Source: Candidatus Saccharimonadota bacterium (GTDB taxonomy: Bacteria; Patescibacteriota; Saccharimonadia; Saccharimonadales; Saccharimonadaceae). From it: a DNA stretch of 64,000 nucleotides. The position numbers were made by a program, and so were the translations under genes. The stretch lies in contig JAFWGN010000007.1 in assembly GCA_017515285.1 (NCBI GenBank), positions 48,921 to 112,920 on the forward strand. The letters run 5' to 3'. Positions 29,260 to 63,998 of the stretch are shown here, one piece after another. Within the stretch, counting starts at the first letter, position 1. Each line of letters opens with the position of its first letter. Below the pieces are notes generated by a model that saw only the letters and a program-made list of their open reading frames with translations, was not told where the DNA came from and searched no databases.

Positions 29260-29359
29260 CTTCCCTCGGCCCTAGGTCTTCTTATTTTGAACATAGAGAA
29301 CTAAAGAACTAGATTTATATCTTGGCAATAGATTATTGAAGACCTAGAGCGGAAGGAAG
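29260..29359. repeat. Palindromic repeat family A, copy 2
   Basis: See the copy at 352-451. It is followed at 29401-29436 by a tail motif (gagctcggcttctagggcttgcggttgagc) that also follows copy 1. Confidence 0.85.
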
Positions 29360-31707: not shown

Positions 31708-31980
31708 AGTCCTCCTTTTAGTTTTTTAACTGTGGGAGCCATGACTTTGGAACAGAAATGGCGCCACGAGACTTGCAAAGCCCAACACATTGATTGTATT
31801 TTTACAACAAACTCAATAATGGGGTTCTCATGACGCCATTAATATAAGGTTGTTGTAAAAATAATACTTTTAATAAACAATCTTTAATAATGTTGAGCTT
31901 TGCATATCTATGATAGCACGAATAAAAAACGATGGGTAGACTATTTTTTCGCGCGTAATATGTTCTAATATTTCTTAAAC
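31708..31980 (-). promoter_or_regulatory. Structured 5' leader of surface-protein paralog 2 (homologous motif to 3412-3662)
   Basis: Shares ctcgtggYgccattt and aaatggcgcc/aatggcgtca partners with leader 1. Confidence 0.4.
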
Positions 31981-33636: not shown

Positions 33637-34998
33637 TTATTCATGATGGCCTCCGATTTGGTGGTTGCGGGTGCAGAGGTTGGCGCCGTCTTCAAGGCTA
33701 GTGGCGTTTAAGATTGCATTTTTACCAAAGCGGTTTCTGATTTTAAGAATAGCGTGCGAGAGATCTTCGTCGCGGGCTTCGGTGTTCTCCGGAACGGTGG
33801 GCGTGAATAAGTCGAGCTGGACAGGGCGGGAGTCGGCGACGGTTTTTGAAAGGACGTTGCCGAAGGAGATGTAGAGGCGCTTAACATTCTTGTCTGACTT
33901 GATGATTTTGTCAAAGAGTTCTAATGTGCGCTTGCGAAGAATTTTTGGCGAAGCGGTGTAGATGGGGGAGCCGGCGGAATCTTCGGGATGAATCGAGCCG
34001 TGAGAAGGGGCGGTGGAAGTGTCCTTGCTGTAGAAAAGGTCGAGAGTGATAAGGTTGGTTTTGAGGGATTTTTGGACGAGGTCGAGTGAGAGTTCATCGA
34101 CCATTTCGGCGAGGAGAAGGCGCGCGGTTTTGGCGTTGACGGCGGCACCGAGGACTTGGCCGTTTGAGAGCGAATTGACTTTGGGTCTGTAACGCTTGAC
34201 GTCTTGCATCGTGACGGGTTCGATACCCCAAAGATGGTCGATAAAAATTTCGGCGTCGATGCCAAATAATTTGTAAAAGAAATCTTCGTCCTTTAGGGCG
34301 ACGCGGGCGAGGTCGCCGAAAGTTCTTAAATTGTATTGTCCTAATTTCTTTGCGGTTTGGTGGCCGATGCTCCAAAAGTCGGTTAAGGGTTCGTGCCCCC
34401 AGAGTTTTTCTTTGAAACTCCTCTCGTCGAGAGAGGCGAGCCGAGCGCCGGTCGCGTCGGGCTCGGCGTGCTTAGCGAGGATATCCATGGCGATTTTGGC
34501 GAGGTAGAGATTGGTGCCGACGCCGGCGGTAGCGATCAGCCCGGTTGTCTCGAAAATTTTGCGAACGATGGCGCGAGTGAAATCTTCGGGAGACTTTTTG
34601 GAGAATTTTAGGTAGCTCGTGATGTCTAGGAAAACTTCGTCAATGGAGTAGCGAAAAATATCGTCTCCTGCGACGAAGTTCAAGAAGACGTCGCGATAGA
34701 GGCGATTGGAATAGTCGAGATATTTTTTCATTCGGGGCGGGGCGACGATATATTCGAGGTCGCGACCGGTTTCAGCCTTGAAAAGTTTTGCTCGTTCTTT
34801 GACTTGAAAAAGTCTGGCACGGCCGGAAAGTCCGAGTTTCTTGAGGCTCGGAGAGACGGCGAGGCAAATTGTCCCGTCGGTTCGGGATTGGTCGGCAACG
34901 ACGAGGTTGGTCGTCATCGGGTCGAGTCCGCGGTTAACACATTCGACGGAGGCGTAGAAGGATTTTAGGTCGATGGCGGCGTAGAAAGATTTTCGCAT
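33637..34998 (-). CDS. Y-family DNA polymerase (DinB/UmuC-like)
   Basis: MRKSFYAAIDLKSFYASVE (compare the DCNSFYASCE motif) with palm and little-finger regions. The start was set at the internal ATG (complement of 34996-34998). Confidence 0.8.
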   Translation of the reverse strand: MRKSFYAAIDLKSFYASVECVNRGLDPMTTNLVVADQSRTDGTICLAVSPSLKKLGLSGRARLFQVKERAKLFKAETGRDLEYIVAPPRMKKYLDYSNRLYRDVFLNFVAGDDIFRYSIDEVFLDITSYLKFSKKSPEDFTRAIVRKIFETTGLIATAGVGTNLYLAKIAMDILAKHAEPDATGARLASLDERSFKEKLWGHEPLTDFWSIGHQTAKKLGQYNLRTFGDLARVALKDEDFFYKLFGIDAEIFIDHLWGIEPVTMQDVKRYRPKVNSLSNGQVLGAAVNAKTARLLLAEMVDELSLDLVQKSLKTNLITLDLFYSKDTSTAPSHGSIHPEDSAGSPIYTASPKILRKRTLELFDKIIKSDKNVKRLYISFGNVLSKTVADSRPVQLDLFTPTVPENTEARDEDLSHAILKIRNRFGKNAILNATSLEDGANLCTRNHQIGGHHE

Positions 34999-35045
34999 AT
35001 TATTCCTTAAAATAAGCGCCAAAGAGACGCTTATTTTTCCTCCCG

Positions 35046-35297
35046 CTAGACCGTCTCCAGGTGCCAGCTCAGATCCGTTGAGTTGAACTCCAACATATAT
35101 CGAGTTGACCCGGCGACGATGTCGAAGATGTGGTGAGCCGTGATGCCGACGAACTTGATGTGGCTGCGGAGAAGCTCCGTCACTTCCACTTCGGGTTCGC
35201 CACGCCTCTTGAAGGAGAGAGGTTGGCACGGCGTCATTTCATAGCCGAAAAGGGCCATGACTTCGACGCGTTCGGATTTAGTTTGATTATTTTTCAT
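35046..35297 (-). CDS. Small hypothetical protein (83 aa) immediately upstream of the Y-family polymerase
   Basis: Good RBS (ttaaggagttacttATG). Function unknown. Its position is analogous to the small accessory genes that accompany Y-family polymerases. Confidence 0.45.
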   Translation of the reverse strand: MKNNQTKSERVEVMALFGYEMTPCQPLSFKRRGEPEVEVTELLRSHIKFVGITAHHIFDIVAGSTRYMLEFNSTDLSWHLETV

Positions 35298-37396: not shown

Positions 37397-37732
37397 ATGG
37401 AAAATTCGGAAATTGTCGATGCGTTGTCGGGGGTTTGGTATCTGGCGACGGTCGAAGACGACCAGCCGCACGTGCGACCGTTTGACAAAGCAACGGAAAT
37501 TAACGGTGAGATTTATGTCGGGACGAACCGCATAAAGAAAGTATTTGCGCAGATGGTAGAAAATCCGAAAGTGGAGGTTTATGCGCTTAATGAATTTGGC
37601 TCGTGTCGGTTTACGGCGGAGGCTTATGGGGAGACGGATGCGAAGATTACGAGAGAGGCGTTTTCCAAAATGGGAAAGCCGATGGACGAGAACTCGGTGG
37701 CGATAAAATTTGAGAAAATTCGTAAAGCCTAG
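37397..37732 (+). CDS. Pyridoxamine 5'-phosphate oxidase-like FMN-binding split-barrel protein
   Basis: 111 aa; the size and pattern (…LATVEDDQPHVRPF…EIYVGTN…) fit the PNPOx-like family. The assignment is from memory and moderate. Confidence 0.5.
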   Translation: MENSEIVDALSGVWYLATVEDDQPHVRPFDKATEINGEIYVGTNRIKKVFAQMVENPKVEVYALNEFGSCRFTAEAYGETDAKITREAFSKMGKPMDENSVAIKFEKIRKA

Positions 37733-38850
37733 CTGCGGATTCGGCGGAGGTTCGGGAGTTCTTCGACGAGGACTTTAATGCAGCCGGCGATGGGGATGGC
37801 GATGATGGCGCCGAAGAGACCGAACATATAAGTCCCGATAGTGATGGCGATAAGGATGATGATGGGGCGAAGTTTGAGAGCGTTGCCCTGGATTTTGGGG
37901 GCGAAAATGTTGACTTCGATGAAACCGTAAACGATGTAGAAAGCGAGCCAGGTGATAGCCATGAGCGGGCTAGTGAAGAGAAGGATTAGGGTTACGAGGG
38001 TGGCGCCGATGACTTGGCCGAACATGGGGATTAGGTAGAAGGTCATGGTGATTAGGCCGGCGGGGATGGCGAGGCGGGCTTCGACGCCGAAAATCATGGA
38101 GATAATGAAGACGGAGATAGCGGTGGCACAACCGTCGGCTAGGGCGATGACGACTTGGTGGGAGACGAAGGTGGAGACGACGTGCGACATTTTGGTTACG
38201 ATGACGCGACCTTCGGTGACGGCCTTGACTTCGGGATCCTTGACGTTTTCGGCGTCTTTAAGAGATTCTCTTGCGCCGATTTTGGTCCAGAGGGTATTGA
38301 CGATTCCGGGGCCGTCGAGGAGGAAGAAGAGGGTCATAATGAGGACGACGGCGGCCTTGCCGAGGAGGGTGCTGACGGTGGAAATTCCGGAGACGACACC
38401 GGTGCCGAGGGAGCTTAAGAGGTTTTTGGAGAGATCTTCGATTGAGCGGACGATTTCGGTAGAAAGGCTTTCGATGCCGAAGGTCTTTCCGAGGCCGTTT
38501 AAGCCGGAGAGGTCGGCGTTTTCGACCATGGCGGGGAAGTTGGTGACGAATTTGGAAAATTCGGAGATGATGACGGGGCCGACGACGGCGAGAACGGCGA
38601 CAATGGCGAGGAGAACGATGAGGTAGGCTAGGACGGAGGCGAGGTTGCTCTTTTTGGTTTTTTGGCCGATGAGGTTGTTGACGTTAAGGGCGAGCGGGCG
38701 AATGGCGATAGCGAGAAGGGCGGCGACGGCGATTAAAGCGAGCGCTTCGGCGGCGCTAATTAGCAAAAAGCCGACCAGGCCGAACCCGAGGATAACGAGC
38801 CAAAAACGGATGAATGTTTTAGTTTCTACTTCGACGATTTGCCTGGGCAT
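37729..38850 (-). CDS. AI-2E family (PerM/UPF0118) transporter
   Basis: Eight predicted TM segments; size and topology are typical. RBS aaggagg. Confidence 0.75.
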   Translation of the reverse strand: MPRQIVEVETKTFIRFWLVILGFGLVGFLLISAAEALALIAVAALLAIAIRPLALNVNNLIGQKTKKSNLASVLAYLIVLLAIVAVLAVVGPVIISEFSKFVTNFPAMVENADLSGLNGLGKTFGIESLSTEIVRSIEDLSKNLLSSLGTGVVSGISTVSTLLGKAAVVLIMTLFFLLDGPGIVNTLWTKIGARESLKDAENVKDPEVKAVTEGRVIVTKMSHVVSTFVSHQVVIALADGCATAISVFIISMIFGVEARLAIPAGLITMTFYLIPMFGQVIGATLVTLILLFTSPLMAITWLAFYIVYGFIEVNIFAPKIQGNALKLRPIIILIAITIGTYMFGLFGAIIAIPIAGCIKVLVEELPNLRRIRS

Positions 38851-38923
38851 AGACCTCCTTATTTATATATATTATAATAGCATATGTTTTCAATTTTTGG
38901 GGAAAAATGGTAAAATAATTTTA

Positions 38924-40018
38924 ATGTTAGTTTCGGATTTTAATTATGAACTTCCGGAAGAGCGGATTGCGAAGTTCCCGCCAGAGAGGCGCGGGACGAC
39001 TCGGCTCTGTGTTTTGAATCGGCGGACGGGGGAAATTGCCGATTCTTATTATGCGGAGCTAACGCAGTTTTTGAAGAGGGGCGATGTTTTAGTGCTTAAC
39101 GATACGAAAGTACAACGGTCGCGACTATTTACGGAGCTTCCGGACGGGCGAGCGAGAGAACTCGTTGTGCTTGAAAAACACGGAAACGAACCGCAACACG
39201 TCATGTACCGCGGGAAACTGCATGACGGGGACGTGCTTCGGGTACTTAAAGCGGATTTTTCGGGGCGGGAAAATTCGAGCGCAAAACGAAGCGAGGAAAT
39301 TTCGAAACTCGAGAAGACGGAAAATTATGTCCGAGTGCTTCAGATTTTAGATGGCGGGTTTGCAGAGGTGGAGGCATTTTCTTCTCTTGGCGGGTTTAAG
39401 CCGGTTGAACTGACTAAACTTGCGGAGGAATTTGGATCGGTGCCCTTGCCGCCATACCTTCACCGCGACGCGAGCGAGGCGGACAAGGAACGCTACCAGA
39501 CGGTTTGGGCGAAGAATATGGGGAGTGCGGCAGCGCCGACGGCGTCTCTAAATATGACTGGGGAGTTGATTGAGAGGCTTAAACTTAAAGGTGTAAGAAT
39601 TTGTTATTTGACGCTTCACGTTGGACTCGGGACGTTCTTGCCAATTCGGACGGATGAGGTCGAAAAACACAAAATGCATTCGGAATGGTTTGACATTCCG
39701 GAAGAGACTATTAAGGCGATTCTGGCTGCGAAGCGGGACGGGCGGAGAGTGGTCGCGGTGGGGACGACGGTCGCGAGGACGCTAGAGTATTATGCGAAAA
39801 CCGGCGAGACGGAGGGGGAGGACGATATTTTTATCTATCCGGGATTTAAGTTTGAGATGATTGACGCGCTTTTGACGAATTTCCACGCGCCGAAGTCAAC
39901 GGTCTTGATGCTTGCGTCGGCGTTTGCGGGATGGCCGTTTTTGAAGGCGGCCTATGAACATTGTATCGAAGAGAAATATAATTTCTTGAGTTACGGGGAT
40001 TCGATGTTGATATGTTGA
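38924..40018 (+). CDS. queA: S-adenosylmethionine:tRNA ribosyltransferase-isomerase
   Basis: MLVSDFNYELPEERIAKFPPERRGTTRL... QueA. The start was moved to an ATG with TAAAAT 7 nt upstream; the track ORF start lies inside the upstream gene. Confidence 0.9.
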   Translation: MLVSDFNYELPEERIAKFPPERRGTTRLCVLNRRTGEIADSYYAELTQFLKRGDVLVLNDTKVQRSRLFTELPDGRARELVVLEKHGNEPQHVMYRGKLHDGDVLRVLKADFSGRENSSAKRSEEISKLEKTENYVRVLQILDGGFAEVEAFSSLGGFKPVELTKLAEEFGSVPLPPYLHRDASEADKERYQTVWAKNMGSAAAPTASLNMTGELIERLKLKGVRICYLTLHVGLGTFLPIRTDEVEKHKMHSEWFDIPEETIKAILAAKRDGRRVVAVGTTVARTLEYYAKTGETEGEDDIFIYPGFKFEMIDALLTNFHAPKSTVLMLASAFAGWPFLKAAYEHCIEEKYNFLSYGDSMLIC

Positions 40019-44778: not shown

Positions 44779-44956
44779 TATAAAAGTCCATTTTCTCGAC
44801 GGGGTCGCCACCGTCGCTAGCGCGACTTCGCCGCAGTCGTCAAAAAATACCTTAATAGTCGGATTCTCGACATCGGACTTTCGAGTCTCGAATCCGTATC
44901 AAGGTATTTTTGACTGCTGGGCGTGGCTCTTTAATGTCGAAAAAAAGACTTTTATA
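44779..44956. repeat. Long imperfect palindromic repeat family B, copy a (between convergent rmuC and recR)
   Basis: The arms share about 40 nt on each side with 63848-63998 (ttttctcgacggggtcgccaccgtYgctagcgcgac...; ...tatttttgactgctgggcgtggctc...). The whole element is about a 180-bp imperfect palindrome. Confidence 0.75.
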
Positions 44957-48773: not shown

Positions 48774-50178
48774 TGTCGTTATTTACCTCCTGTGCTCCTC
48801 CCATTATATCAGAAATTTGTCGAAGTTCGGGAGATTTTTCGAGCTCGTCGGGGTTGTGAATCACGAAATCCTTGTTAAAATTACTTTTTAATATCTCGCT
48901 GTTGCTGGGGCGTTCGAGGATTGCTTTTGTTATTTTCTTTGGAGGGTAAATATCAATTTGGGTATCTGATTCGATGATTTTGCATTTTGAGAGCTGTTGC
49001 TTCAAAGCCGGGGTGAGAGTTTCTGCCGCCTTGCGCAAACCTTCGCTTGCGTCGCCGGCGTCCTCGCGCCCGTCGTTACGGGGCTCGGCGCCTAATACTC
49101 GGTCGTGACCTCCGTGTTGCGCCGCAATCGAAGGATTTGCTCCGGCGGCTTCGTCGCCTTTTAGGTCGTCTCGGAAGACTTGTGGATTTTCTTTAATGTG
49201 AGAAAAAGGAGTTTTCGATTCACTTTCAACATTCGTCCCGCTCGTTTTTAATCCGTCCAAAAAGGCTAACAATAACTTTGCTTCGGGGTAGGGGGCGGAG
49301 ACGGTGGGGAGGGAGGCGAGGAGGGGGAGAAGTTCCGGAGTGGGGGAGGAGACGATGCGGGAGAGGGCGGAGGAGGCGATGGACTCAGGTTTGAGGCCGG
49401 AGTTTAAGAGGTCTTTTAGGATTTTTGTGATTTCGGGGGAGTTGGCGGAAGTGTAGGCGGAGAGGAGGCTAGAGATGGCGGAGTCGAGCGGGAGGCCGAG
49501 GCAGTTTGCGACGTCTTGCTCGGAGATTTGGGCTTTGTCGTTGTCGAGCGTTGAGATCTGGTCGAGGAGAGAGAGGGAGTCGCGGAAAGAACCGCCGCCT
49601 TTTTCGATAATTAGATTAAGCGCAGAATCTTCGATTTTGATGTGTTCTTTTTCGCAGATTTGCTTTAAGTGAGGGAGCATGACGTCGGGCGGGGCGAGGC
49701 GAAAAGTAAAAACCTGGCTTCGGGACGTTATGGTTATCGGGACTTTTTCGAGGTCGGTGGTCGCGAGAATGAAAACAACGTGCGCCGGTGGTTCTTCGAG
49801 GGTTTTTAAGAGCGCATTAAAGGCGGATTTCGAAAGCATATGCACTTCGTCGATGATATAGACCTTAAACCTCCCCTCCGAGGGCGCAACCATGGCTTTT
49901 TCGCGGAGGTCGCGGATGTTATCGACGCCGGTGTTCGAGGCGGCGTCGATTTCGATGATGTCGAGATAACTGTCTTCAAGTTCATATTTGAAGCCGTTGA
50001 TTTCGTGCGCTAAGATGCGGGCGACGGAAGTTTTCCCGCAACCGCGAGGGCCGGTAAAAAGATAACTATGGGAGACTTTGCCGGATTTTAAGGCGCCGTC
50101 TAGGGGCCTTGTTACTTGGTCTTGCCCGACGACTTCGGCGAGGGTTTTCGGGCGGTATTTGCGATAGAGAGCAAGCAT
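48754..50178 (-). CDS. dnaX: DNA polymerase III subunit gamma/tau
   Basis: GPRGCGKTS Walker A, DEVHML, and an SRC clamp-loader motif region. The C-terminal region carries the inserted peptide ..EPRNDGRE.. Confidence 0.9.
   Translation of the reverse strand: MLALYRKYRPKTLAEVVGQDQVTRPLDGALKSGKVSHSYLFTGPRGCGKTSVARILAHEINGFKYELEDSYLDIIEIDAASNTGVDNIRDLREKAMVAPSEGRFKVYIIDEVHMLSKSAFNALLKTLEEPPAHVVFILATTDLEKVPITITSRSQVFTFRLAPPDVMLPHLKQICEKEHIKIEDSALNLIIEKGGGSFRDSLSLLDQISTLDNDKAQISEQDVANCLGLPLDSAISSLLSAYTSANSPEITKILKDLLNSGLKPESIASSALSRIVSSPTPELLPLLASLPTVSAPYPEAKLLLAFLDGLKTSGTNVESESKTPFSHIKENPQVFRDDLKGDEAAGANPSIAAQHGGHDRVLGAEPRNDGREDAGDASEGLRKAAETLTPALKQQLSKCKIIESDTQIDIYPPKKITKAILERPSNSEILKSNFNKDFVIHNPDELEKSPELRQISDIMGGAQEVNNDNGGIPF
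49040..49125. repeat. GC-rich hairpin repeat (RPE-like) copy inside dnaX coding sequence
   Basis: 49063-49087 is identical to 15369-15393 in lysS. 49046-49120 aligns with the intergenic copy at 58800-58890 (tcgcttgcg...gcgcc(c)taatactcggYcgtRRcctccgtgttg). Confidence 0.6.
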
Positions 50179-50826: not shown

Positions 50827-51258
50827 CTATTCGTGGTGGTAATGAGAGCCGCGAGAGATTTCGTAGGCACGGTAGAGTTGCTCGGAGACGATGAGGCGGG
50901 CGAGCATATGTGGGAAGACGAGTTTGCCGAAGCTCCAGACAAAATGGGCGCGTTCTCTGGCTTCTTCGGTGACGCCGAAAGGGCCGCCGATGACGATATA
51001 GACTTCGCGAGAGTAAGTAAACTCTTCTTGGAGAAGTTGGGAGAGTTCGGGGGAAGTGATTTCTTTGCCGCGCTCGTCGGCAATAATAACGAACGCATCC
51101 TCCGGGAACTTCCATTTTGAGAGAAGAACGTCGAGCTCTTCCGCCTCGTAAAAAGTAAAGTCGAAGTCGAAGGGCTTTCGGACCTTTTTCATGTAGTCGT
51201 CGATAAGCCAGAAATATTCTCCTTTGTGTTTCTTGCCACCTGCTATAATATGAACCAT
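50827..51258 (-). CDS. rlmH: 23S rRNA (pseudouridine1915-N3)-methyltransferase RlmH (SPOUT)
   Basis: 143 aa, SPOUT knot motifs (...VYIVIGGPFG...). Confidence 0.8.
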   Translation of the reverse strand: MVHIIAGGKKHKGEYFWLIDDYMKKVRKPFDFDFTFYEAEELDVLLSKWKFPEDAFVIIADERGKEITSPELSQLLQEEFTYSREVYIVIGGPFGVTEEARERAHFVWSFGKLVFPHMLARLIVSEQLYRAYEISRGSHYHHE

Positions 51259-51261
51259 ATA

Positions 51262-51290
51262 TTTACAATTTTAACACTTTTTGGTATAAT
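51262..51290 (+). promoter_or_regulatory. Sigma70-type promoter of rplJL (TTTACA-17 nt-TATAAT) followed by an L10-leader-like 5' UTR of about 110 nt
   Basis: tttaca at 51262-51267, a 17-nt spacer, and tataat at 51285-51290. Confidence 0.5.
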
Positions 51291-51406
51291 ATGACAAGTT
51301 ACCAAAGACAGCGACGGGAGAAATCCTTAATAATGTCGCCGAGGCTATTCTTCATAAAGTTGGTAACGGAATTTAACAATCCGTGAACTTAAACAAGGAA
51401 AACTAA

Positions 51407-51928
51407 ATGGCTATCTCTAAAGATAAAAAATCCACTTTAGTTGCTGATTTGACTAATCTACTTTCGGATGCGAAGGCGACCGTCTTTGCGCGTTATCAAG
51501 GCCTTACCGTGGCGGAGCTCCAAGAGCTACGTGCGCAGGCCCGCGAGAACGGCGTTAAGATTAAGGTCGTTAAAAACCGCTTAGTGAGAGTGGCGATGAA
51601 CGAAATCGCGGTTTATAAGGATACTGATACGACCGGGCTTACCGGACAGCTCCTTTATGCGATTTCCGATTCTGACGAAATCATGCCGGCGAAAGTCCTC
51701 GCGAATTTTGCGAAGACCCACGAGGCGCTTGAACTCCAAGGCGGATTCTCTGATCTTGGCGCGGCGCTTTCTGCCGACGAAGTGAAGACCTTGGCCCAGA
51801 TGCCGACGAAGAACGAGATGATCGCGCAAGTGGTCGCTACGCTTCTTTCGCCGATGGGCGATACCATTTCCGCCACCGCTGGTGGACTTTCTGGTATTAT
51901 TTCCGGTCTTGAAAACCACGCGAAATAG
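51407..51928 (+). CDS. rplJ: 50S ribosomal protein L10
   Basis: MAISKDKKSTLVADLTNLLSDAKATVFARYQGLTVAEL... L10. Confidence 0.95.
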   Translation: MAISKDKKSTLVADLTNLLSDAKATVFARYQGLTVAELQELRAQARENGVKIKVVKNRLVRVAMNEIAVYKDTDTTGLTGQLLYAISDSDEIMPAKVLANFAKTHEALELQGGFSDLGAALSADEVKTLAQMPTKNEMIAQVVATLLSPMGDTISATAGGLSGIISGLENHAK

Positions 51929-51976
51929 TCAAACCACGACTGTTATAAACTATTAATTATTGAAAGGAGTCATTAA

Positions 51977-52354
51977 ATGGCTGCTGATATTAAAAAATTG
52001 GCTGAAGAACTCGTCAATTTGACCGTTCTTGAAGTCAACGAACTCAAAAACACCCTTAAAGATGAATATGGCATCGAGCCGGCCGCGGCCGCCGTTGCTG
52101 TTGCTGCTGCTCCTGCCGAAGGCGGTGCTGCGGCTGAAGAAAAATCTGAATTCGACGTCGTCCTTAAAGACGCCGGCGCTCAGAAGATTGCTGTCATCAA
52201 GGCCGTCAAAGAGGCGACTGGCCTCGGTCTTGGCGAAGCCAAGGCAATCGTTGATGGTGCTCCTGCTACCGTCAAAGAGAAAGTCAAGAAAGACGAAGCT
52301 GAAGCCCTCAAGAAATCTCTTGAGGAAGCTGGCGCGACCGTCGAGCTTGCTTAG
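51977..52354 (+). CDS. rplL: 50S ribosomal protein L7/L12
   Basis: N-terminal dimerisation helix, an Ala/Pro hinge, and a C-terminal domain (...[27 protein letters not shown]...). Confidence 0.95.
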
Positions 52355-52391
52355 TCAAATCGCTATTAAAAATTCACGGATTGTTACGAAA

Positions 52392-52425
52392 AATCCTCTC
52401 GGGCGCTCGCTTGAGGGGATTTTTG
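52392..52425 (+). terminator. Rho-independent terminator after rplL
   Basis: aAUCCUCucgggcgcucgcuuGAGGgGAUuuuug. A second perfect 10-bp hairpin (tccgggtttc...gaaacccgga) lies at 52440-52480. Confidence 0.45.
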
Positions 52426-52685
52426 ATAGCCTTCCTGACTCCGGGTTTCAGCTAGAGGACTTATTTGAAACCCGGAGCTAGAAAAACTATCCGTATTTCC
52501 GTAAGTATATATGTATATAGTATATAATATATACTATATACCCAAAATAGTCCATCCCGGGGAGTGTAAGGGGCTCTTCTTTTTCTCTGTTTTATGGTAT
52601 AATTAAAAAGTATTCTTGGGAATTTATTTATGAGTCATCGATCAAGAATAGGACATTCACATTTTTGGAAAGGAGAGTGATTCTC

Positions 52686-52874
52686 ATGGAGAAGAAGCGC
52701 AAAATCATCACGCTATACGAGGAGGATATTAAAAAAGTCCTCGCCAAGGAATACGGTGTCCACTGCGAGGATGTTCGTATCCAGCATGAAAATTATGAAT
52801 TTTCCGGCCTTAGCGGTCACGCTATTCCCGCTACTCGTTACATGGCTAAGATTTTGGTAAATAAGGAGGAGTAA
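52686..52874 (+). CDS. Small hypothetical protein (62 aa), first gene of a three-gene operon
   Basis: RBS ggaaaggagag 8 nt before the ATG. The track start at 52665 is a TTG in the RBS region. Confidence 0.45.
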   Translation: MEKKRKIITLYEEDIKKVLAKEYGVHCEDVRIQHENYEFSGLSGHAIPATRYMAKILVNKEE

Positions 52875-52878
52875 ACGT

Positions 52879-53649
52879 ATGAAACGTATGATACGTATTG
52901 GCATCATTGGGGGGATGAGCTATGAATCGACCCTCCACTACTACAAGCAAATTAACCAAGAGGTTTACAAGCGAACTCATGGGCTTGCTTTTCCTGATTT
53001 GGCGATTCGAAGCGTAAACTTTCAGGAATATCGCAAGCTGATGAGGAAGGGAGACTGGAAACGCATTGGCGAGTTATTAGGTGGCGAAGCCTGGGAACTT
53101 GCGTATGGTTTTTATTGCGACTATATTGCGATAGCAACAAATACCATGCATAAGGTTGCAGGAGATATTGTGCGGACGGTCGAAGGAACACCAGATTTTC
53201 CTTTTCGTCGCTTTGACGGGTTTTATCCTGAACTCGTCCACATCGGCGATTGTATTGCTGAAAAGTGCAACGAAATTAATGCGAAAAAAGTTCTGCTTCT
53301 CGGCACTGAATTCACGATGACCGAAGATTTCATGAAGGCCCGTTTGAAAACTCATGAAATTGAGGCTATGGACACGAGCAGCTACCCCAAAGAAATTTAT
53401 AAGATTGATCGCATCATCTTCGAGGAGCTGTGTCACGGCATTGTAACTCCCAAGTCAAAGAAGTTTATGATGAATTTCGTGCGCCAATTCCTGTCGGATT
53501 CCGAATTCAAGCCCGACGCAATCGTTCTCGGTTGCACCGAGCTGAACATGATTTTAGAACCAGGCGACGTGGATATTTCGCTTATTGACTCGACCAAAGC
53601 GCATATCGACAAGCTCGTCAATTTGTACTTAGAAAACTCGGAGGTGTAA
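52879..53649 (+). CDS. Asp/Glu/hydantoin racemase superfamily protein with Thr replacing the first catalytic Cys (Thr/Cys type)
   Basis: IGIIGGMS N-terminal motif. The first active-site motif reads IAIATNTMH where the canonical form is a CNTAH-type motif; the second is LGCTELN. RBS aaggagg. Confidence 0.7.
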   Translation: MKRMIRIGIIGGMSYESTLHYYKQINQEVYKRTHGLAFPDLAIRSVNFQEYRKLMRKGDWKRIGELLGGEAWELAYGFYCDYIAIATNTMHKVAGDIVRTVEGTPDFPFRRFDGFYPELVHIGDCIAEKCNEINAKKVLLLGTEFTMTEDFMKARLKTHEIEAMDTSSYPKEIYKIDRIIFEELCHGIVTPKSKKFMMNFVRQFLSDSEFKPDAIVLGCTELNMILEPGDVDISLIDSTKAHIDKLVNLYLENSEV

Positions 53650-53654
53650 ATAAT

Positions 53655-54110
53655 ATGGAAGAACGTATTTACGGACTGGATACCGGAGGGTACGATCCTC
53701 AGAAAGTCGCCGCAATGGCCGACTGGGAGCTGTTTTTAGAGTATTATTCTATTACGCTCGTCGCATGGCGTATGAACCACGATACTGTCAGGGACTATTC
53801 CAGGGGTTATGTTTCAGAAGACGAGTATAAATCGGTAGCAAAAGAACTTGAGAGGTTGCAATACCCCATTGAGTACCTGCTCTATACCATTTCAAAGCGC
53901 AATGATATCGAGGTGAACGAGCCGACTGCCGGTAAGCATATTTCTCCCAATCGCGAGGTATTTATGAGGTGGTATGGCTTTTATGATGACTACTTCATGC
54001 ATAAGATATCCGATGAAGTGTGGCACGATTTTGAACAGAAACGCAAGGACGGCGCTGATATTTCGGAATACTTGCCCGAAGGCGATTGGCGGAATTACGG
54101 CCAGACATAG
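53655..54110 (+). CDS. Hypothetical aromatic-rich protein (151 aa)
   Basis: RBS ggaggtg. It lies 5 nt after the racemase-family gene. No domain recognised. Confidence 0.5.
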   Translation: MEERIYGLDTGGYDPQKVAAMADWELFLEYYSITLVAWRMNHDTVRDYSRGYVSEDEYKSVAKELERLQYPIEYLLYTISKRNDIEVNEPTAGKHISPNREVFMRWYGFYDDYFMHKISDEVWHDFEQKRKDGADISEYLPEGDWRNYGQT

Positions 54111-54340
54111 ACAACTACCTTTCCGAAAACTCAAAAAGCTCGACTCCGGTCGGGCTTTTCTTTTCTTAATTTTATGTTATAACTGATGGGTAGTCGCGTC
54201 TTAAGTGACTAAGTAGTCTTCGATTCTTGACTCAAGGAGGAATTGTCATAACACAATGAATCAGATTTTCGTTATTGACGTAGCTGAAGCCGTTACGAAG
54301 TATTCTGACGAGTATAAGGACAAGATTTATTAATTACTTC

Positions 54341-54366
54341 AAGGGCGCTCTTCGGAGCGTCCTTTT
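54341..54366 (+). terminator. Hairpin terminator (GGGCGCTC ttcg GAGCGTCC + UUUUU) following a 25-codon mini-ORF
   Basis: Seen directly. A TATAAT box follows at 54371-54376. Confidence 0.45.
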
Positions 54367-54385
54367 TCATGGTATAATGTATGGT

Positions 54386-54988
54386 ATGAAGAACGAAATT
54401 GAGGCACAGTTTTTAGATATTGATAAAGAGGATATTCGGGCAAAATTAAAGAAGTTCGGCGCAAAACTAGTAAAGCCGGAAGTTCTAATGAAGCGTGTTG
54501 TTTTTTCTCTTGACGACCATCGTTATGCTCGCGTCCGTGACGAGGGCGACAAAATCGTCATGACCTATAAAAACGTTCTCGACGGAAATTCCATTCTCGG
54601 CACCAAAGAAGTGAACGTCGTCGTCGACGACTATGATAACGCAATTTTGCTTCTCAAGAGTTGTGGCTTAAAGCCAAAATCTCGTGAAGAATCTTATCGT
54701 GAAAAATGGATGCTCGGTAGTGTTGAACTTTGCATCGACACTTGGCCTTGGATTCCGACCTTTTTAGAAATTGAGGGACCAAGCGAAGAGGAAGTCTGGG
54801 AAGTTGCGAAGAAACTAGGGCTAGATAAGTCTAAGGCTAAGTTTGGCTCAGTTGATTCAACCTATCGTCATTATTACGGAATTGACGAGTCAGTTTTTAA
54901 TAATGAAACCCCTCGGGTCGACTTTGAAATGAATCCGCCGAAATGGGCGAAGAAAGCAGAGCTAGGCAGACGACAGGAATCGTCGTGA
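54386..54988 (+). CDS. CYTH-domain protein (CyaB/thiamine-triphosphatase-like triphosphate tunnel metalloenzyme)
   Basis: The N-terminal EIEAQFLDID (EIExKFL signature) and the about 200-aa size fit CYTH. The start is at the ATG with TATAAT 7 nt upstream. Confidence 0.6.
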   Translation: MKNEIEAQFLDIDKEDIRAKLKKFGAKLVKPEVLMKRVVFSLDDHRYARVRDEGDKIVMTYKNVLDGNSILGTKEVNVVVDDYDNAILLLKSCGLKPKSREESYREKWMLGSVELCIDTWPWIPTFLEIEGPSEEEVWEVAKKLGLDKSKAKFGSVDSTYRHYYGIDESVFNNETPRVDFEMNPPKWAKKAELGRRQESS

Positions 54989-55227
54989 GCGGCAGATCTG
55001 AAATTATTTACGATGACCGCCTCATGGAGCGAAACCCAAAAACATCCCTCGACATCTGGTGGGAGTATGTTATAATTATATGGATTTGGCGACTAGTCAA
55101 ATAGATTGCTTAAAATGTGCTTAGAAAAGGAGGGGTATCTATGTTTGTAGTAGAAAATTGAGCGTGACCTCAGTGGACCGTGATCATCTTGTCGCTTATA
55201 ACTTTGCATGAAAAGAGGCGATATTCT

Positions 55228-55416
55228 ATGGTGGAGAAGACATGGTGGCAATGGGTTATTCAGGTTATCGTTCCAGTGATACTGTTCCTATCGTATGGAA
55301 AAGTAAACGAGGAAGAGTTCAAGTCAAAACATCTTATCGCTAACTCAATCCTACGGATAGGAGTATACTACGTCTTTCATATGTACATAGACCTAGTGAG
55401 AAATGGCATTCTGTAA
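55228..55416 (+). CDS. Small membrane protein (62 aa, two predicted TM helices)
   Basis: MVEKTWWQWVIQVIVPVILFLSYG...; RBS aaaagagg. Length and hydropathy only. Confidence 0.4.
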   Translation: MVEKTWWQWVIQVIVPVILFLSYGKVNEEEFKSKHLIANSILRIGVYYVFHMYIDLVRNGIL

Positions 55417-55475
55417 GCACAACAAATTGTACCTTCGAGTAAGCGGATCGTTTTGTTCTGAAGGAGGTAGATATC

Positions 55476-55859
55476 ATGAATATTGTCAGAGTCAACGGTA
55501 AGCGTATCAACATCCCAAATGGTCATTCCGTGAGTATTATCAACGGCGACGTGTTCGTCGATGGTCGGCGCTATACCGACCGAAACGAAAGTCTCAAGCA
55601 GGTCAATATCGTCATCGAAGGCAGTTGCGATTCGCTCCAGGTAGATTCCTGTGATCAGGTTGAAGTCAAAGGCGATGTCCGCGGTGTTCTGAAAGCTGGC
55701 GGCAACGTTATTGTCCACGGCAACGCCCATAATAAGGTAGATGCCGGTGGCAATATCCTCTGCGGAGACGTCGGAGGCGACGTTGATGCGGGCGGAAGTG
55801 TAACCTGCGGAAATGTCTCCGGCTCTGTTGACGCCGGCGGATCTGTTATTCGTAGGTAA
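55476..55859 (+). CDS. Beta-helical repeat protein (bactofilin/DUF4097 LiaG-like repeats)
   Basis: Strong RBS gaaggagg. Tandem short repeats GDVxGxVDAGGSVxCGNVSGSVDAGGSV are typical of right-handed beta-helix stress proteins. Confidence 0.5.
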   Translation: MNIVRVNGKRINIPNGHSVSIINGDVFVDGRRYTDRNESLKQVNIVIEGSCDSLQVDSCDQVEVKGDVRGVLKAGGNVIVHGNAHNKVDAGGNILCGDVGGDVDAGGSVTCGNVSGSVDAGGSVIRR

Positions 55860-55866
55860 TCCTAAA

Positions 55867-55897
55867 CCCCAGTTTCCTTGGAGACTGGGGCGTTTTA
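55867..55897 (+). terminator. Rho-independent terminator after the beta-helical repeat gene
   Basis: CCCCAGU uuccuuggag ACUGGGG c GUUUUAU. Confidence 0.6.
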
Positions 55898-56042
55898 TAG
55901 TATTGACTTTTTAGTAAAGTTATGGCAAAATAATTTAGTTGGGTGGCGTTCTTTAGCATTTTTGTGAGTTTTAATGCATAGATACCACCTTTTCTTGTTT
56001 CCCCGAAACCATTTACTGTCTAGAATTAGGAGGTACGAAACT

Positions 56043-57731
56043 ATGACAATGGCAACTTTTCTCCCTCTTCTCCCTATCATTATTGGTGTAGTAATCATCG
56101 CGGCCGTCATTATCGCTCTCTTTGCGATGATCAAGACCGCCAACGGTAACGAAGCACTGGTCGTTTCCGGTGTTGGCGCTACCGACAAGGATGGCAATCC
56201 CACAATCAAGCGTGCTGGCGGGCGAGTCGTGGTTCCTTTCATCCAGAAAGCGAAGTATTTCGATCTCTGCGTCAGAACTGCAAAGGTTGAGGGTGACGTC
56301 ACGAAGACCCAAACTGGTGTACCGATTCAGATCGACTGGGCGGTGGCCTACAGCCCTGATACTACGTCGAACGAAAGTCTCCAACGTGCAGTCTGTAATT
56401 TCCTTGACAAGAACGATGAAGAATTGAAGCGCGTTATCCTCGATGTCGTTTCCGGCGGCGTGCGTGCCGTTATTGCGAAAATGACTCCCGAGGAAGTTAT
56501 GAATGGAAAGGATAAGCTCGACGATCAGGTCAAAGAGTCTATCGCGGCTCAGATGAAGGATCTCGGTTTCAATACAATCCTTTCTATCCATGAAGTCGAA
56601 GATGCTGACGGCAGTACATATTATCGGGATCTCGCCGCCAAGGATCGCGAAACCAAGCGTCGCGAAGCTGCGAATATTACGGCCGAGAACGACCAGCAGA
56701 TTCGCGAAACCCGCGCGGAAACCGACCGTATTGCTCAGGAAAAGGAGCTGGCGGCGCAGGTTATTGTTGCTGAAAAGCAGCGCGATACCGACGTTCGCAA
56801 GGCTCAGTTCCAGGCAGAAACTGCTCGTGAACAGGCCAAGTCTCAGATGGCTGGCGAACTTGAGAAGCAGGCGATTAACCAGCAGCTCGAGGAGAAGAAG
56901 GGTGCTGTCGCCGTAATGCAGGCTGAACAGGCAAATCTCGCCGCTCAGAAGCAGCAGGAAGTCGAAGTGACGAAGGCGGAGACCGCCAAGCGCACGACGA
57001 TTATCTCTGCGCAGGCTGAGGCCGAACGCAAGAAGGCGGAAGCCGCAGGTGACGCTGAGGCGCAGAAAGTCAGCGCCGCTGGTCAGGCGGAAGCCAAAAA
57101 GCTGACCGCTGCCGGCGAAGCCGAGGCGGCCGCCGTCAAGAAGACCCGCGAGGCTACGGCATCCGCCGAAGCCCGCAAGACCGAAGCTGAAGGTACTGCT
57201 ACCGCTCGTAAGACGGAAGCCGCCGCTGAAGCTGAGGCTGTAAAGGTTCAGGCCGAAGCCGAAGCCACCGCCGTTAAGGCGAAAGGTGAAGCAGAAGCCG
57301 CGGCCATCGCTGCAAAGGGTAAGGCCGAAGCTGAGGCTATCGAGGCCAAAGGTAAGGCGGAAGCCGAAGCGGCGCGTGCGCTCTCTGACGCTCAGGCAGC
57401 CAACGATAAGGTCAACTTCGAGCTGAAGAAGATCGAGATTGAGCAGAATACCCGCGTCCAGGTTGCGACGAACATCGCAACCGTCATGGCTGAAGTTGGT
57501 AAGAACGCCAGGTTCTACGATTTCGGCGGTGGCGCCAAGCAGGAAGGTGGCGGCGATTTGCTGACCAGCATCCTCGGACGCATTCCTCAGATTTTTGCCC
57601 AGGCGGATCTCCAAAATCAGGCGCTCAACGGCGAAGAAGTCACTGAGACTGTCAAGAAACTGGTTGCCGCCGTCGCAGACCCGATTAAGGGGCAGGGTTC
57701 GACTCCTGAAGCTGAAGCTCCGAAGGAATAA
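56043..57731 (+). CDS. Flotillin (SPFH/band-7 domain plus Glu/Ala-rich coiled-coil flotillin domain)
   Basis: N-terminal TM, an SPFH domain, and long EA-repeat coiled coil (AEAEAIEAKGKAEAEA...). RBS aggagg. The start was reassigned within the track ORF. Confidence 0.85.
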   Translation: MTMATFLPLLPIIIGVVIIAAVIIALFAMIKTANGNEALVVSGVGATDKDGNPTIKRAGGRVVVPFIQKAKYFDLCVRTAKVEGDVTKTQTGVPIQIDWAVAYSPDTTSNESLQRAVCNFLDKNDEELKRVILDVVSGGVRAVIAKMTPEEVMNGKDKLDDQVKESIAAQMKDLGFNTILSIHEVEDADGSTYYRDLAAKDRETKRREAANITAENDQQIRETRAETDRIAQEKELAAQVIVAEKQRDTDVRKAQFQAETAREQAKSQMAGELEKQAINQQLEEKKGAVAVMQAEQANLAAQKQQEVEVTKAETAKRTTIISAQAEAERKKAEAAGDAEAQKVSAAGQAEAKKLTAAGEAEAAAVKKTREATASAEARKTEAEGTATARKTEAAAEAEAVKVQAEAEATAVKAKGEAEAAAIAAKGKAEAEAIEAKGKAEAEAARALSDAQAANDKVNFELKKIEIEQNTRVQVATNIATVMAEVGKNARFYDFGGGAKQEGGGDLLTSILGRIPQIFAQADLQNQALNGEEVTETVKKLVAAVADPIKGQGSTPEAEAPKE

Positions 57732-57756
57732 TACGAAGCCCCTTAAAACTCACACC

Positions 57757-57790
57757 GCCCCCTCTTCGGAGGGGGCATTTTCTATTTTTA
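57757..57790 (+). terminator. Rho-independent terminator after flotillin
   Basis: GCCCCCUC uucg GAGGGGGC, then auuuucuauuuuu. Confidence 0.65.
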
Positions 57791-57825
57791 CCCATAGCAA
57801 CTAAAGTGCTTTTGTCAATATATTG

Positions 57826-58770
57826 TTATTGGGTTTTAATGGATTGGAGGACTTGGCGGGCTTCGGAGGTGGAATGACAGTCCATCAGTTTCGCGCGGAG
57901 GTCGGAGGCGCCGTCGTAGCCTTTAACGTAAATTTTGAAGTAGTGTTTTAGCGGTTCGAATGATTTATGTTGGTTCTTTTTATCGAATAAGTCAAGGTGG
58001 AGTTTCAAGAGGTTAAGGAGTTCTTCGTGAGTTGGTTCGTGGTTAGTGAAGCAATAGGGGTTTTCGAAGACGCCGCGGCCGATCATGAAGCCATTGACAC
58101 CGTAGGTGCGACAGAGTTCGGTGCCTTCCGCTGCGGTTTTGATGTCGCCGTTTACTAGGAGTTTGGTTTCGGGGGAGTATAGGTCTCTTAACGCGACGAT
58201 TTCGGGGATGAGTTCGAAGTGGGCGGGGACTTTGGACATTTCTTTTCGAGTTCGCAAATGGACGGTGAGGGCGGCGGGGTGTTCACTCAAGAGAGTCGGG
58301 AGCCAGGTTTTGTATTCTTCGACGAAAGAAAAACCGAGACGGGTTTTAATTGAAACCGGAAGACCGTTTGAGTTTCTGACGGCGTTTCTAAAACACTCGA
58401 CGGCGAGGTCGGGGGTGCGAATCATTTGAGCGCCGCCGCCGGCCTTGTTGACGTGTTTGTCGGGACAACCGAAGTTCAAATCGACGCCGGAAAAACCGAG
58501 GTCTTTTAAGGCCGCGACGGTTTTTCCGAAATGGTCCGGGTTTTTGCCCCAGATTTGGGCGATGATGGGGGAGTCGGTGGGGGCGATTTTTAGGCGCTCC
58601 AAAGCGTTCGCTCTTCCCTTTTCGCTGGCGTAGCTTGAGACGTTGGTGAACTCGGTAAAGAAGAGGTCGGGGCGGCCGGCGGTCGCGATGACTTGGCGAA
58701 AAACAACGTCCGTCACGCCTTCCATTGGTGCTAGAACAGAAATCGGCTTTTTTAACTCGGTCCAAATCAT
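57826..58770 (-). CDS. dus: tRNA-dihydrouridine synthase
   Basis: TIM-barrel Dus motifs (LAPMEGVTD; catalytic Cys in NFGCP). The start was set at the MIWTEL ATG preceded by TATAAT. Confidence 0.85.
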   Translation of the reverse strand: MIWTELKKPISVLAPMEGVTDVVFRQVIATAGRPDLFFTEFTNVSSYASEKGRANALERLKIAPTDSPIIAQIWGKNPDHFGKTVAALKDLGFSGVDLNFGCPDKHVNKAGGGAQMIRTPDLAVECFRNAVRNSNGLPVSIKTRLGFSFVEEYKTWLPTLLSEHPAALTVHLRTRKEMSKVPAHFELIPEIVALRDLYSPETKLLVNGDIKTAAEGTELCRTYGVNGFMIGRGVFENPYCFTNHEPTHEELLNLLKLHLDLFDKKNQHKSFEPLKHYFKIYVKGYDGASDLRAKLMDCHSTSEARQVLQSIKTQ

Positions 58771-58799
58771 TTTTGATATTATAACATAATACTCGCTTG

Positions 58800-58892
58800 C
58801 GGTCGATAGCTCGTTCGCCGACACGGGTCGCGCCCGCCCGCCGTCGCGGGGGTCGCGCCCTAATACTCGGCCGTAGCCTCCGTGTTGTCGGC
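58800..58892. repeat. GC-rich hairpin repeat (RPE-like), intergenic copy
   Basis: Aligns along its length to 49046-49120 (dnaX copy). It contains cccgccgtcgcggggg and shares taatactcggccgtagcctccgtgttg. Confidence 0.55.
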
Positions 58893-58894
58893 GA

Positions 58895-59052
58895 GACGAG
58901 ACTATCGAACCGCTCGCAACTTCCGTCGAGTCCTCTGAAGCCGTGAAAACAAATCAAACCAGACCCTCGATAAGACGAGACTATCGAACCGCTCGCAACT
59001 TCCGTCGAGTCCTCTGAAGCTGTGGAAACAAATCGAGCCCAGAATAAGCCAG
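58895..59052. repeat. Tandem direct repeat, 2 x 79 bp
   Basis: gacgagactatcgaaccgctcgcaacttccgtcgagtcctctgaagcYgtgRaaacaaatc... repeated with 3-4 mismatches. Confidence 0.8.
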
Positions 59053-59058
59053 AGCAGT

Positions 59059-59081
59059 AAAAACCCCGCTGGAGGGCGGGG
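59059..59081 (-). terminator. Rho-independent terminator (minus strand) downstream of the small ORF at 59109-59306
   Basis: Minus strand CCCCGC cctcca GCGGGG, then uuuuu. Confidence 0.5.
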
Positions 59082-59108
59082 TGGAGGTTAGTGGAGGTCA
59101 GTGGGGGG

Positions 59109-59306
59109 TTAGCCGGGAAGAAAACAACCAAGGAGGGATTCGAAGACGCCTTTTTTGGGCTCGTTTTCGATTTTGTTTTTTGCAAAATCGAAGAGGTCGG
59201 AGCTACTGCTTACATATTTTTCTTCGCCGGTGCGGTTGTCTTTGATGGTAAAACCATCGCTTGGAGTGTTTACACCGCAAATACGTTCAATCGCGTCGAT
59301 AAACAA
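59109..59306 (-). CDS. Small hypothetical protein (65 aa) with TTG start
   Basis: RBS AAGGTG 9 nt upstream of the TTG. A terminator lies about 25 nt after the stop. No homology recognised. Confidence 0.35.
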   Translation of the reverse strand: MFIDAIERICGVNTPSDGFTIKDNRTGEEKYVSSSSDLFDFAKNKIENEPKKGVFESLLGCFLPG

Positions 59307-59387
59307 TCATCTCATCACCTTTCTAACCAAAATTGAATGTGCGTTTGTCTCTAGGTTTTCCCCTTAAACCTGAAGAACAACGCTATT

Positions 59388-63826: not shown

Positions 63827-63998
63827 GATAAGCCTTTTCTCGACGGGGTCGCCACCGTTGCTAGCGCGACATCGCCGCAGTCGTCAAAATAACCTTAACA
63901 GGCTGTTTCTCCGCGCGGAGACAAGCTCGTGCTCGAAACAGTGTCAAGGTTATTTTGACTGCTGGGCGTGGCTCCTTATTGTCTCGAAAAGGCTTATT
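63827..63998. repeat. Long imperfect palindromic repeat family B, copy b (reaches window end)
   Basis: Arms homologous to 44779-44956 and core identical to 26957-27029. Outer arms gataagcctt / aaggcttat pair with each other. Confidence 0.75.

Follow-up and report, generated by a model that had tools for sequence, protein, structure and literature searches.

A 64-kb stretch of the genome of a Candidatus Saccharimonadota bacterium, referred to here as the window, harbours between 51.4 and 57.7 kb a block of plus-strand genes with an anomalous codon bias. The block starts with the ribosomal protein genes rplJ and rplL, continues with a series of accessory genes and ends with a gene for a flotillin. 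The source lineage belongs to the gut or rumen Saccharibacteria (TM7) and the window is contained in an 80-kb scaffold from a metagenome (ENA ERZ28655611 scaffold_284). The best matches of its DnaX protein, in a search of one genome per species, are gut and rumen Saccharibacteria (Candidatus Nanosyncoccus and metagenome-assembled genomes from goat and sheep), at an identity of 50-62% only. The sequence was found 100% identical in three further assemblies from other samples, and the arrangement is therefore not an assembly chimera or artefact.

The left flank of the block is formed by rlmH (50827-51258, minus strand), a SPOUT methyltransferase gene (PF02590) that is native to the genome and divergent from rplJ. 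Within the divergent spacer a consensus scan predicts a promoter for rplJ on the plus strand (51262-51290; TTTACA, 17 nt, TG-TATAAT) that matches at 11 of 12 positions. The genes rplJ (51407-51928; ribosomal protein L10, PF00466) and rplL (51977-52354; ribosomal protein L7/L12, PF00542 and PF16320), both native, are followed by an inverted repeat with a T run (52396-52425, plus strand) that forms the rplL terminator hairpin. From this point an accessory island of ~5.4 kb (52426-57825), with all its genes on the plus strand, extends up to dus (57826-58824, minus strand; tRNA-dihydrouridine synthase, PF01207), the native right flank. The first-pass annotation had described a divergent gene pair at the left end of the block and a convergent one at the right, and these are indeed rlmH / rplJ and flotillin / dus. 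The TA-rich tract that it had placed at the edge of the core contains a perfect palindrome (52513-52541; 14-nt arms, 1-nt spacer), which is unique in the window and lies in the left junction segment of the island.

A TGGTATAAT-type promoter-like sequence at ~52590-52605 precedes orf69 (52665-52874; 62 amino acids (aa) in the source record), which lacks a Pfam match and is the first gene of a racemase operon. It is followed by a gene for an Asp/Glu-type amino-acid racemase (52879-53649; PF01177, TIGR00035), by orf151 (53655-54110), for which no family match was found and which is 93% identical to positions 4025-4480 of the comparison locus L172, and by a predicted terminator (54134-54159). Deletion scars occupy 54248-54378; what remains there is the 3' end of a gene for a GNAT acetyltransferase (54248-54333) and, from 54343, a segment that elsewhere lies downstream of a 166-aa gene. 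A CYTH-domain protein (54377-54988; CyaB/ThTPase-like, PF01928, with TIGR00318 under its cut-off) is encoded next, and then the small hydrophobic protein of orf78 (55180-55416; called as 62 aa), which is 38-43% identical to the products of 62-aa genes at the same relative position in L088 and L172. The product of orf127 (55476-55859) is a Gly/Asp/Val-repeat protein, 87% identical to L088 5810-6190, with a match to phrog_3163 and a weak match to FapA; from its repeat pattern alone we read it as possibly bactofilin- or beta-helix-like. A predicted terminator (55867-55890) separates it from the flotillin gene (56043-57731; SPFH / Band 7, FloT- or YqiK-like, PF01145), which has an Ala/Glu/Lys repeat tail and a predicted terminator of its own (57757-57776).

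About 90% of the open reading frames (ORFs) of the window are on the minus strand, including two ribosomal protein clusters, rpoA, secY, secA, tsf, rpsB, dnaB, dnaX, recR and several aminoacyl-tRNA synthetase genes. The plus-strand guanine/cytosine (GC) skew is above zero in every 1-kb interval but one (-0.002 at 29-30 kb); it is mostly +0.1 to +0.46 and is lowered to +0.04 to +0.16 across 51-60 kb. At third codon positions the skew (GC3 skew), read on the plus strand, is +0.31 to +0.83 in each native gene of either orientation; it is +0.55 in rlmH and +0.59 in dus. Four-fold degenerate sites were used to strip out amino-acid effects, since amino-acid composition contributes to the plain GC3 skew and made it understate the anomaly. 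Three wrong-frame ORFs (52029-52481, 38045-38626 and 20343-20747) were excluded from the statistics. At four-fold sites the 43 minus-strand genes have C.60, G.09, T.20 and A.10, with a coding-strand skew of -0.73 (standard deviation (sd).12). The five native plus-strand genes (sortase, PNPOx-like, queA, tgt and rmuC) have G.58 and C.13 and a mean skew of +0.63 (sd 0.02, range +0.60 to +0.65). Wobble G exceeds wobble C on the plus strand in 48 of 48 native genes, as the first-pass annotation had proposed for both gene orientations, and composition is therefore set by strand and not by orientation or function. The codon families that it had named also check out: GCG (75%), CCG (84%) and ACG (71%) prevail in the native plus-strand genes, and GCC (61%), ACC (61%) and CTC (65%) in the minus-strand genes. 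The disparity between G and C is extreme (0.63-0.73 at four-fold sites), that between A and T is nearly nil, the strand that bears most genes is the C-rich one, and the replication origin lies outside the window. A gene for a Y-family (DinB/IMS-type) DNA polymerase is present at 33637-35229 in this genome with its unusual mutational asymmetry.

The genes of the block depart from this pattern. Read on the plus strand between 51407 and 57731, the GC3 skew is +0.09 in rplJ, -0.33 in rplL, -0.04 in the racemase gene, +0.04 in orf151, +0.01 in the CYTH gene, -0.60 in orf127 and -0.04 in the flotillin ORF (55974-57731). At four-fold sites the coding-strand skew of the block is -0.32 overall, and by gene it amounts to -0.02 (rplJ), -0.72 (rplL), -0.64 (orf69), -0.07 (racemase), -0.33 (orf151), -0.33 (CYTH), -0.70 (orf127) and -0.38 (flotillin). 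Every block gene deviates from the native plus-strand expectation (binomial p 1e-5 to 1e-47). The wobble bias had been called opposite to that of other plus-strand genes; this holds in full only for rplL, orf69 and orf127, while the remaining genes are intermediate or near zero. The core was rightly described as AT-richer, with a GC content of 43.8% at 52426-55900 vs 50.6% in the remaining window. The strand-symmetrised 4-mer distance, moreover, peaks at 52.5-55.5 kb (z = +5.0) and is at least z = +2.1 throughout 50.5-58.5 kb.

For comparison a series of loci was fetched, each labelled with an L number; the closest relatives among them, L174, L093 and L090, were identified by scanning metagenomes with hyp172 and by searching with Dus. 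The gene order of L174 is gpsA-addA-dus / rplL-rplJ / rlmH-[625 aa]-hyp172-dnaX-dnaB-PMT2-ybaB-recR-rmuC, collinear with the window from gpsA to rmuC. Protein identities to the window are 67-98% in L174 (rplL 97-98%, rplJ 92%, recR 84%, Dus 80%, AddA 72%); in L093 they are 94% for rplL, 92% for rplJ and 78% for dnaB, and in L090 95% for hyp172 and 94% for rplJ. The position and orientation of rlmH, and with it the divergent rlmH / rplJ junction, are identical in all three, and the convergent rplL / dus junction is common to L174 and L093. The distance between rplL and dus is 46 bp in L174, 68 bp in L093 and 5.47 kb in the window. The short spacers of the two relatives contain the same terminator as the hairpin at 52396-52425, which is the last segment that the window has in common with this empty site before the dus stop codon at 57826. 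As rplL abuts dus in L174 and L093, the 5.4 kb at 52426-57825 represents an insertion.

Many Saccharibacteria have rplJ and rplL in the same direction as hyp172-dnaX-dnaB, and secE-nusG-rplK-rplA-rplJ-rplL is retained, co-directional with dnaX, in Saccharibacteria other than the window lineage. L004, for example, has secE-nusG-rplK-x-rplA-x-rplJ-rplL-(class-V aminotransferase)-x-hyp172-dnaX. L003 shows an in-place inversion limited to the rplJ-rplL pair. Relative to the L004 arrangement the pair of the window is inverted and detached from rplKA, in line with the earlier remark that rplKA is missing upstream and rpoBC downstream. Across gut Saccharibacteria (L002-L014, L090-L169) rplJ-rplL and rlmH are found in no fewer than four orders and orientations with respect to hyp172-dnaX, which points to recurrent small inversions at a locus that is prone to rearrangement. 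The inversion of rplJ-rplL relative to dnaX predates the split of the window, L174 and L093 lineages and is not the source of the present anomaly. Judged from these comparisons the pair would be an old REARRANGEMENT that has undergone no recent inversion.

The relatives share the unusual composition of the pair as well as its orientation. The four-fold sites of rplL in the window have C.44, T.48, G.07 and A.01, so that nearly all codons end in a pyrimidine (GCT 55%, GCC 28%, GTC 69%, ACC 80%). The skew of rplL is -0.72 in the window, -0.76 in L174 (C.41, G.06, T.51) and -0.83 in L093; that of rplJ is -0.02, +0.11 and 0.00, respectively, and +0.12 in L090. L174 has a GC content of 53.7% and a stronger asymmetry than the window, with C.55-.78 and skews of -0.61 to -0.98 in the genes oriented like dnaX; on the other strand, to which rplL belongs, a 625-aa gene has a skew of +0.56. 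In L093 the asymmetry is weaker than in the window. Disparity and four-fold GC content both climb within the clade, from ~.35-.5 (L093, L090) via.70 (window) to ~.8 (L174). The flanking genes have largely turned over at four-fold sites: their identity between the window and L093 is 29-41%, which is chance level by estimate, and between the window and L174 55-65% vs ~47% estimated by chance. For rplJ and rplL together the identity to L093 is 51%. At the DNA level rplJ is closest to L174 (84%), followed by L093 and L090 (~80%) and then by others, and this ranking is the same as that of hyp172, rlmH and dus. In the case of rplL the top rank of L174 (90%) is again clear, and L093 is tied with several others at ~85%. 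The pair has therefore descended vertically. An Rfam search at gathering thresholds returned only the tRNA and no L10 leader.

The bias of rplJ-rplL is a stable, gene-specific state that is actively maintained, because the memory of an inversion predating these splits could not have survived at neutral sites. Its cause is most likely selection for pyrimidine-ending codons in highly expressed genes on the minority strand. L7/L12 and L10 are as a rule highly expressed, and fewer copies of the rplJ product are needed per ribosome. With ~90% of the genes on the C-rich strand, C- and T-ending codons would be the majority codons of the genome and may be held by selection in rplJ-rplL, almost fully in rplL and about half-way in rplJ. 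Lys and Glu codons of rplL end in G in 35% of cases vs 25-32% in minus-strand genes and 59% in native plus-strand genes; they follow the majority usage, which fits adaptation to a common tRNA pool. Such an effect is visible only because both genes lie on the minority strand.

The accessory island has a composition of a different kind, with C.38, G.18, T.30 and A.13 at four-fold sites; its G fraction of.18 compares with.58 in native plus-strand genes (p = 6e-92). Homologues of its genes are found as modules at other loci. The orf69-racemase(-orf151) module occurs in L170-L173 and the orf78-orf127-flotillin module in L088 and L089. In L172 the racemase module runs on into AAA_5-DUF7192-184aa-62aa, which in L088 and L089 stands ahead of orf127-[122 aa]-flotillin. 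Window positions 52574-54249 are 83% identical in DNA to L172, and 55.4-57.8 kb 82% to L088; the 54 bp downstream of flotillin are 96% identical to L088. The orf69 protein shows 81-84% identity to its homologues in L170-L173. The best homologues of the racemase are Saccharibacteria proteins (57-78% identity; 68-70% for L172 and L170), and nearly all of its homologues are from Saccharibacteria. The scars in the window match L171 (2034-2119 and 2656-2742) and L172 (5136-5258) at 93-100% in blastn searches, while the GNAT and 166-aa genes are whole in L170, L171 and L172. Likewise, a 122-aa gene located between orf127 and flotillin in L088 is gone from the window. The window copy is a cut-down version of these modules, having lost genes by deletion.

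The modules are associated with mobile elements in other genomes. That of L170 adjoins a phage-type integrase gene (PF00589) and a type I restriction system, and that of L172 a transposase gene of an rve-family insertion sequence (IS). A fragment resembling the 3' end of tmRNA lies between the integrase gene and the racemase module of L170 (9343-9414; 15 bits in Rfam, below threshold, and nothing with ARAGORN). It hints at integration at ssrA in the L170 genome. ARAGORN returned no tRNA or tmRNA in L170-L172, L088 and L093. Searches of 50,697 phage and 72,556 plasmid records with the island DNA gave no match, and a PHROGs search gave only families of unknown or non-specific function. The island may have arrived by recombination of a fragment from a larger island; the window copy has the look of a remnant in decay or of a segment gained by recombination.

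The composition of the island is that of the module pool and not that of the host. The four-fold skew of the racemase gene is -0.10 in L172, -0.32 in L170 and -0.07 in the window; that of orf127 is -0.75 in L088 and -0.70 in the window, and that of flotillin -0.50 and -0.38, respectively. Among polarised synonymous changes no drift towards G was seen on the window lineage, with 21 gains and 27 losses of G in flotillin and 3 and 4 in the racemase gene. Assuming that the host bias still acts, the empty sites, the inherited composition and the lack of drift towards the host bias indicate that the arrival was recent on the timescale of synonymous change.

The flotillin extends the comparison beyond the phylum. 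It is 90% identical to Saccharibacteria homologues at other loci, for instance beside rpsL-rpsG in L082 and L087, and 84-85% identical at the protein level to homologues on Clostridiales-type contigs (L084-L086, L179 and L180). These contigs are labelled Clostridiales or Saccharofermentanaceae at NCBI and some come from the same sample series. They carry GH43, SpaA pilin, ZnuABC, Fur, AraC, TetR and extracytoplasmic function (ECF) sigma factor genes, which is free-living Firmicutes content. The flotillin genes on them bear the local base composition of their own contigs. In a neighbour-joining tree the Clostridiales flotillins are nested inside the Saccharibacteria clade. Taken together, the sequence data indicate a transfer of flotillin between phyla, probably in the direction out of Saccharibacteria. 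It is tempting, though rather doubtful, to regard the island as a recently active part of a pool of mobile genes that move between phyla in the gut. If the exchange took place between an epibiont and its host cell, a Firmicutes host would be indicated for this uncultured Saccharibacteria lineage.

The anomaly is best explained, with a probability of roughly 0.78, by two separate causes that lie side by side. The native pair rplJ-rplL has kept its orientation since before the split from the nearest relatives and most likely escapes the strand-wide G bias at wobble positions by codon selection. The segment 52426-57825 would have been inserted recently from a variable module pool common to gut Saccharibacteria; it has lost genes by deletion, retaining the moderate excess of C over G, the T-richness and the lower GC content of the pool without detectable drift towards the host. 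The first-pass annotation had suggested an inverted and/or horizontally acquired island of 51.3-57.8 kb; acquisition is supported by these comparisons for 52.4-57.8 kb only, and inversion found no support. A recent inversion of the whole block, in which formerly C-rich minus-strand genes now drift to the plus-strand pattern, is hardly credible. It would explain why the limits of the anomaly coincide exactly with the strand-switch points and why the skews of rplL, orf69 and orf127 (-0.64 to -0.72) equal native minus-strand values; decay of C to T would suit the T excess of the block (.32 vs.17-.20), and the co-directionality of rplJ-rplL with dnaX in other Saccharibacteria would fit as well. 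However, an opposite skew of native magnitude is confined to these three genes and does not run through the block. L174, L093 and L090 have the same orientation and junctions as the window and the same skew of rplJ-rplL, even though neutral sites have largely turned over. Moreover, the accessory genes are missing at this site in L174 and L093, the island genes match the composition of homologues in other genomes, and changes on the window lineage do not tend towards G. The symmetrised tetranucleotides, the strongest outlier of the window, exclude inversion alone since an inversion leaves them unchanged. A variant in which inversion was followed by C-to-T decay is suggested by the excess of T and by GTDB relatives whose rplJ-rplL are co-directional with dnaX; it fails because the closer relatives share both orientation and anomaly.

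It is also very improbable that the whole block, rplJ-rplL included, came from another Saccharibacterium with ordinary codon usage and replaced the resident pair. The T- and C-rich wobble of rplL does resemble that of rpsL and rpsG in L087 (T.51-.70), a relative without strong strand bias, and the adjoining genes are clearly mobile. Against such a replacement stand the identity ranking of rplJ, which is that of hyp172, rlmH and dus, the proximity of rplL to L174 (next ~85%), the conservation of both junctions in L174 and L093, and the presence of the same codon pattern in relatives that have no island. The bias of rplJ-rplL could in principle be mutational, if damage or repair under heavy transcription cancelled the replication-linked bias; this is unlikely, even though the anomaly is gene-specific and stable over three lineages. 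Deamination of the non-transcribed strand is expected to favour T over A, and rplL has T.48 vs A.01 at four-fold sites. In E. coli and other bacteria, however, transcription-linked bias enriches both G and T on the coding strand, and the coding strand of rplL has far more C than G (.44 vs.07), the opposite of the expected enrichment. The Lys and Glu codons of rplL that match majority usage and the above-chance synonymous identity of rplJ and rplL, as under constraint, also argue against it. Quite unlikely, too, is an island that was ancestral at rplL / dus, was deleted independently in L174 and L093, and kept its composition by recombination or selection. The region is prone to deletion, with three scars relative to L170, L172 and L088, the slot that follows rplL varies within the family, and insertion machinery and target-site repeats were not found. 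Two independent deletions would be needed, though, each sparing the shared terminator, and long residence should have produced the G-rich wobble seen in rmuC and the 625-aa gene on the same strand, which the island does not have; nor has it gained G on the window lineage.

Some observations weigh against the combination of a codon-selected pair and a recent insertion. The minus-strand ribosomal protein genes are shifted only slightly (T.25 vs.19; A.07 vs.11); they cannot test selection because mutation and selection share the same direction there, and selection on rplJ-rplL is inferred from the conservation of the bias. The left junction segment of the island (52426-52570, 145 bp) has no homologue in any fetched locus. 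The window copy contains no integrase or transposase, a repeat search revealed no direct or inverted repeats bounding the island, and no tRNA lies near it, the only tRNA gene in the 64 kb being tRNA-Leu at 19594. The term recent presumes a host mutational bias that acts today, and the parsimony polarisation used sequences that are ~18-22% diverged, where multiple hits blur the result. Two independent deletions in L174 and L093 are the less parsimonious alternative to an insertion.

A striking anomaly that resembles a fresh inversion can thus be read as a small accessory island beside a pair of ribosomal protein genes that withstand the mutational bias of their strand. The two processes are already well known and no new kind of mechanism is required. 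Under strong G/C strand asymmetry the wobble skew is a very sensitive marker of foreign DNA, and it also tells selection from mutation in the few highly expressed genes on the minority strand. If the reading of the island is correct, its drift towards the strong background bias could serve as a clock for dating arrivals. The C-rich gene-bearing strand, the growth of the asymmetry within the clade and the flotillin shared with Clostridiales are background features that are perhaps worthier of attention than the block itself.

Several other features of the window were recorded. Two minus-strand ORFs (697-3411, 904 aa; 29731-31707, 658 aa) have no firm Pfam match, the second showing a weak match to Fib_succ_major. 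Their 5' ends are near-identical, a 104-nt 3' flank is 98% identical and their middles differ (shared flanks 351-454 / 29259-29362 and 3253-3434 / 31543-31730). Both stand out in composition, with a symmetrised 4-mer z of up to 4.5 and a weaker wobble skew, and they have the appearance of a variable family of surface proteins or of additional foreign DNA. An intergenic repeat of ~60-150 nt is present in three copies (26948-27062, 44791-44945 and 63835-63990; 83-96% identical over the shared parts), located in the secY/rplO and rmuC/recR spacers and upstream of gpsA. The spacer between dus and addA (58825-59387) is unusually long, at 563 bp, and contains a 67-bp direct repeat (58894-58960 / 58973-59039, 94% identical) as well as a 53-nt stretch (58835-58887) that is 81% identical to a segment inside dnaX (49067-49119). 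The longest ORF for queA and a divergent gene for an AI-2E transporter overlap by ~200 nt at the 5' end of the latter (window 37729-38850 / 38645-40018); the Pfam match of queA begins at residue 96, and the true start is therefore probably near 38930.

A split of codon usage by replication strand is described for Borrelia burgdorferi, Chlamydia and Lawsonia intracellularis (PMC2671203, PMC2089121), and horizontally acquired genes are said there to form a second codon-usage trend in Lawsonia (PMC2671203). As in these bacteria, third-position composition in the window sorts genes by strand, whatever their function. Unlike the Borrelia type, the bias of the window is nearly purely one of G vs C, with little A/T asymmetry, and whereas the classical leading strand is G/T-rich and gene-rich, the gene-rich strand here is the C-rich one, with the origin located outside the window. 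Another parallel is the candidate phyla radiation (CPR) bacterium Ch65, in which, as in related Microgenomates, one strand has ~2x as much C as G and no A/T disparity is seen (PMC7143001). The G/C asymmetry of the window is of the same kind (GC skew ~+0.2; 0.63-0.73 at four-fold sites, and up to 0.98 in L174). The disparity of Ch65, however, is chromosome-wide with genes about evenly split between the strands, while the 64-100 kb known here have their genes strongly concentrated on one strand; the lineage belongs to a different phylum (Saccharibacteria), and the strength of the disparity varies within the clade (L093/L090 < window < L174).

The inserted segment resembles genomic islands in its absence from sister genomes, its atypical GC and oligonucleotide composition, its accessory functions and its homologues in other contexts and taxa, some of them beside integrase and IS genes. 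It differs from them in that the window copy lacks mobility genes such as an integrase, is not flanked by direct repeats and has no tRNA or tmRNA as its target; in composition it is set apart most clearly by the absence of the strand bias, more so than by GC content alone. The state of rplL, and to a lesser degree of rplJ, resembles translational selection as known elsewhere: a restricted codon set is conserved among relatives and synonymous sites diverge less. The difference from the usual case is that the presumably selected codons are the ones favoured by mutation on the opposite, gene-rich strand.

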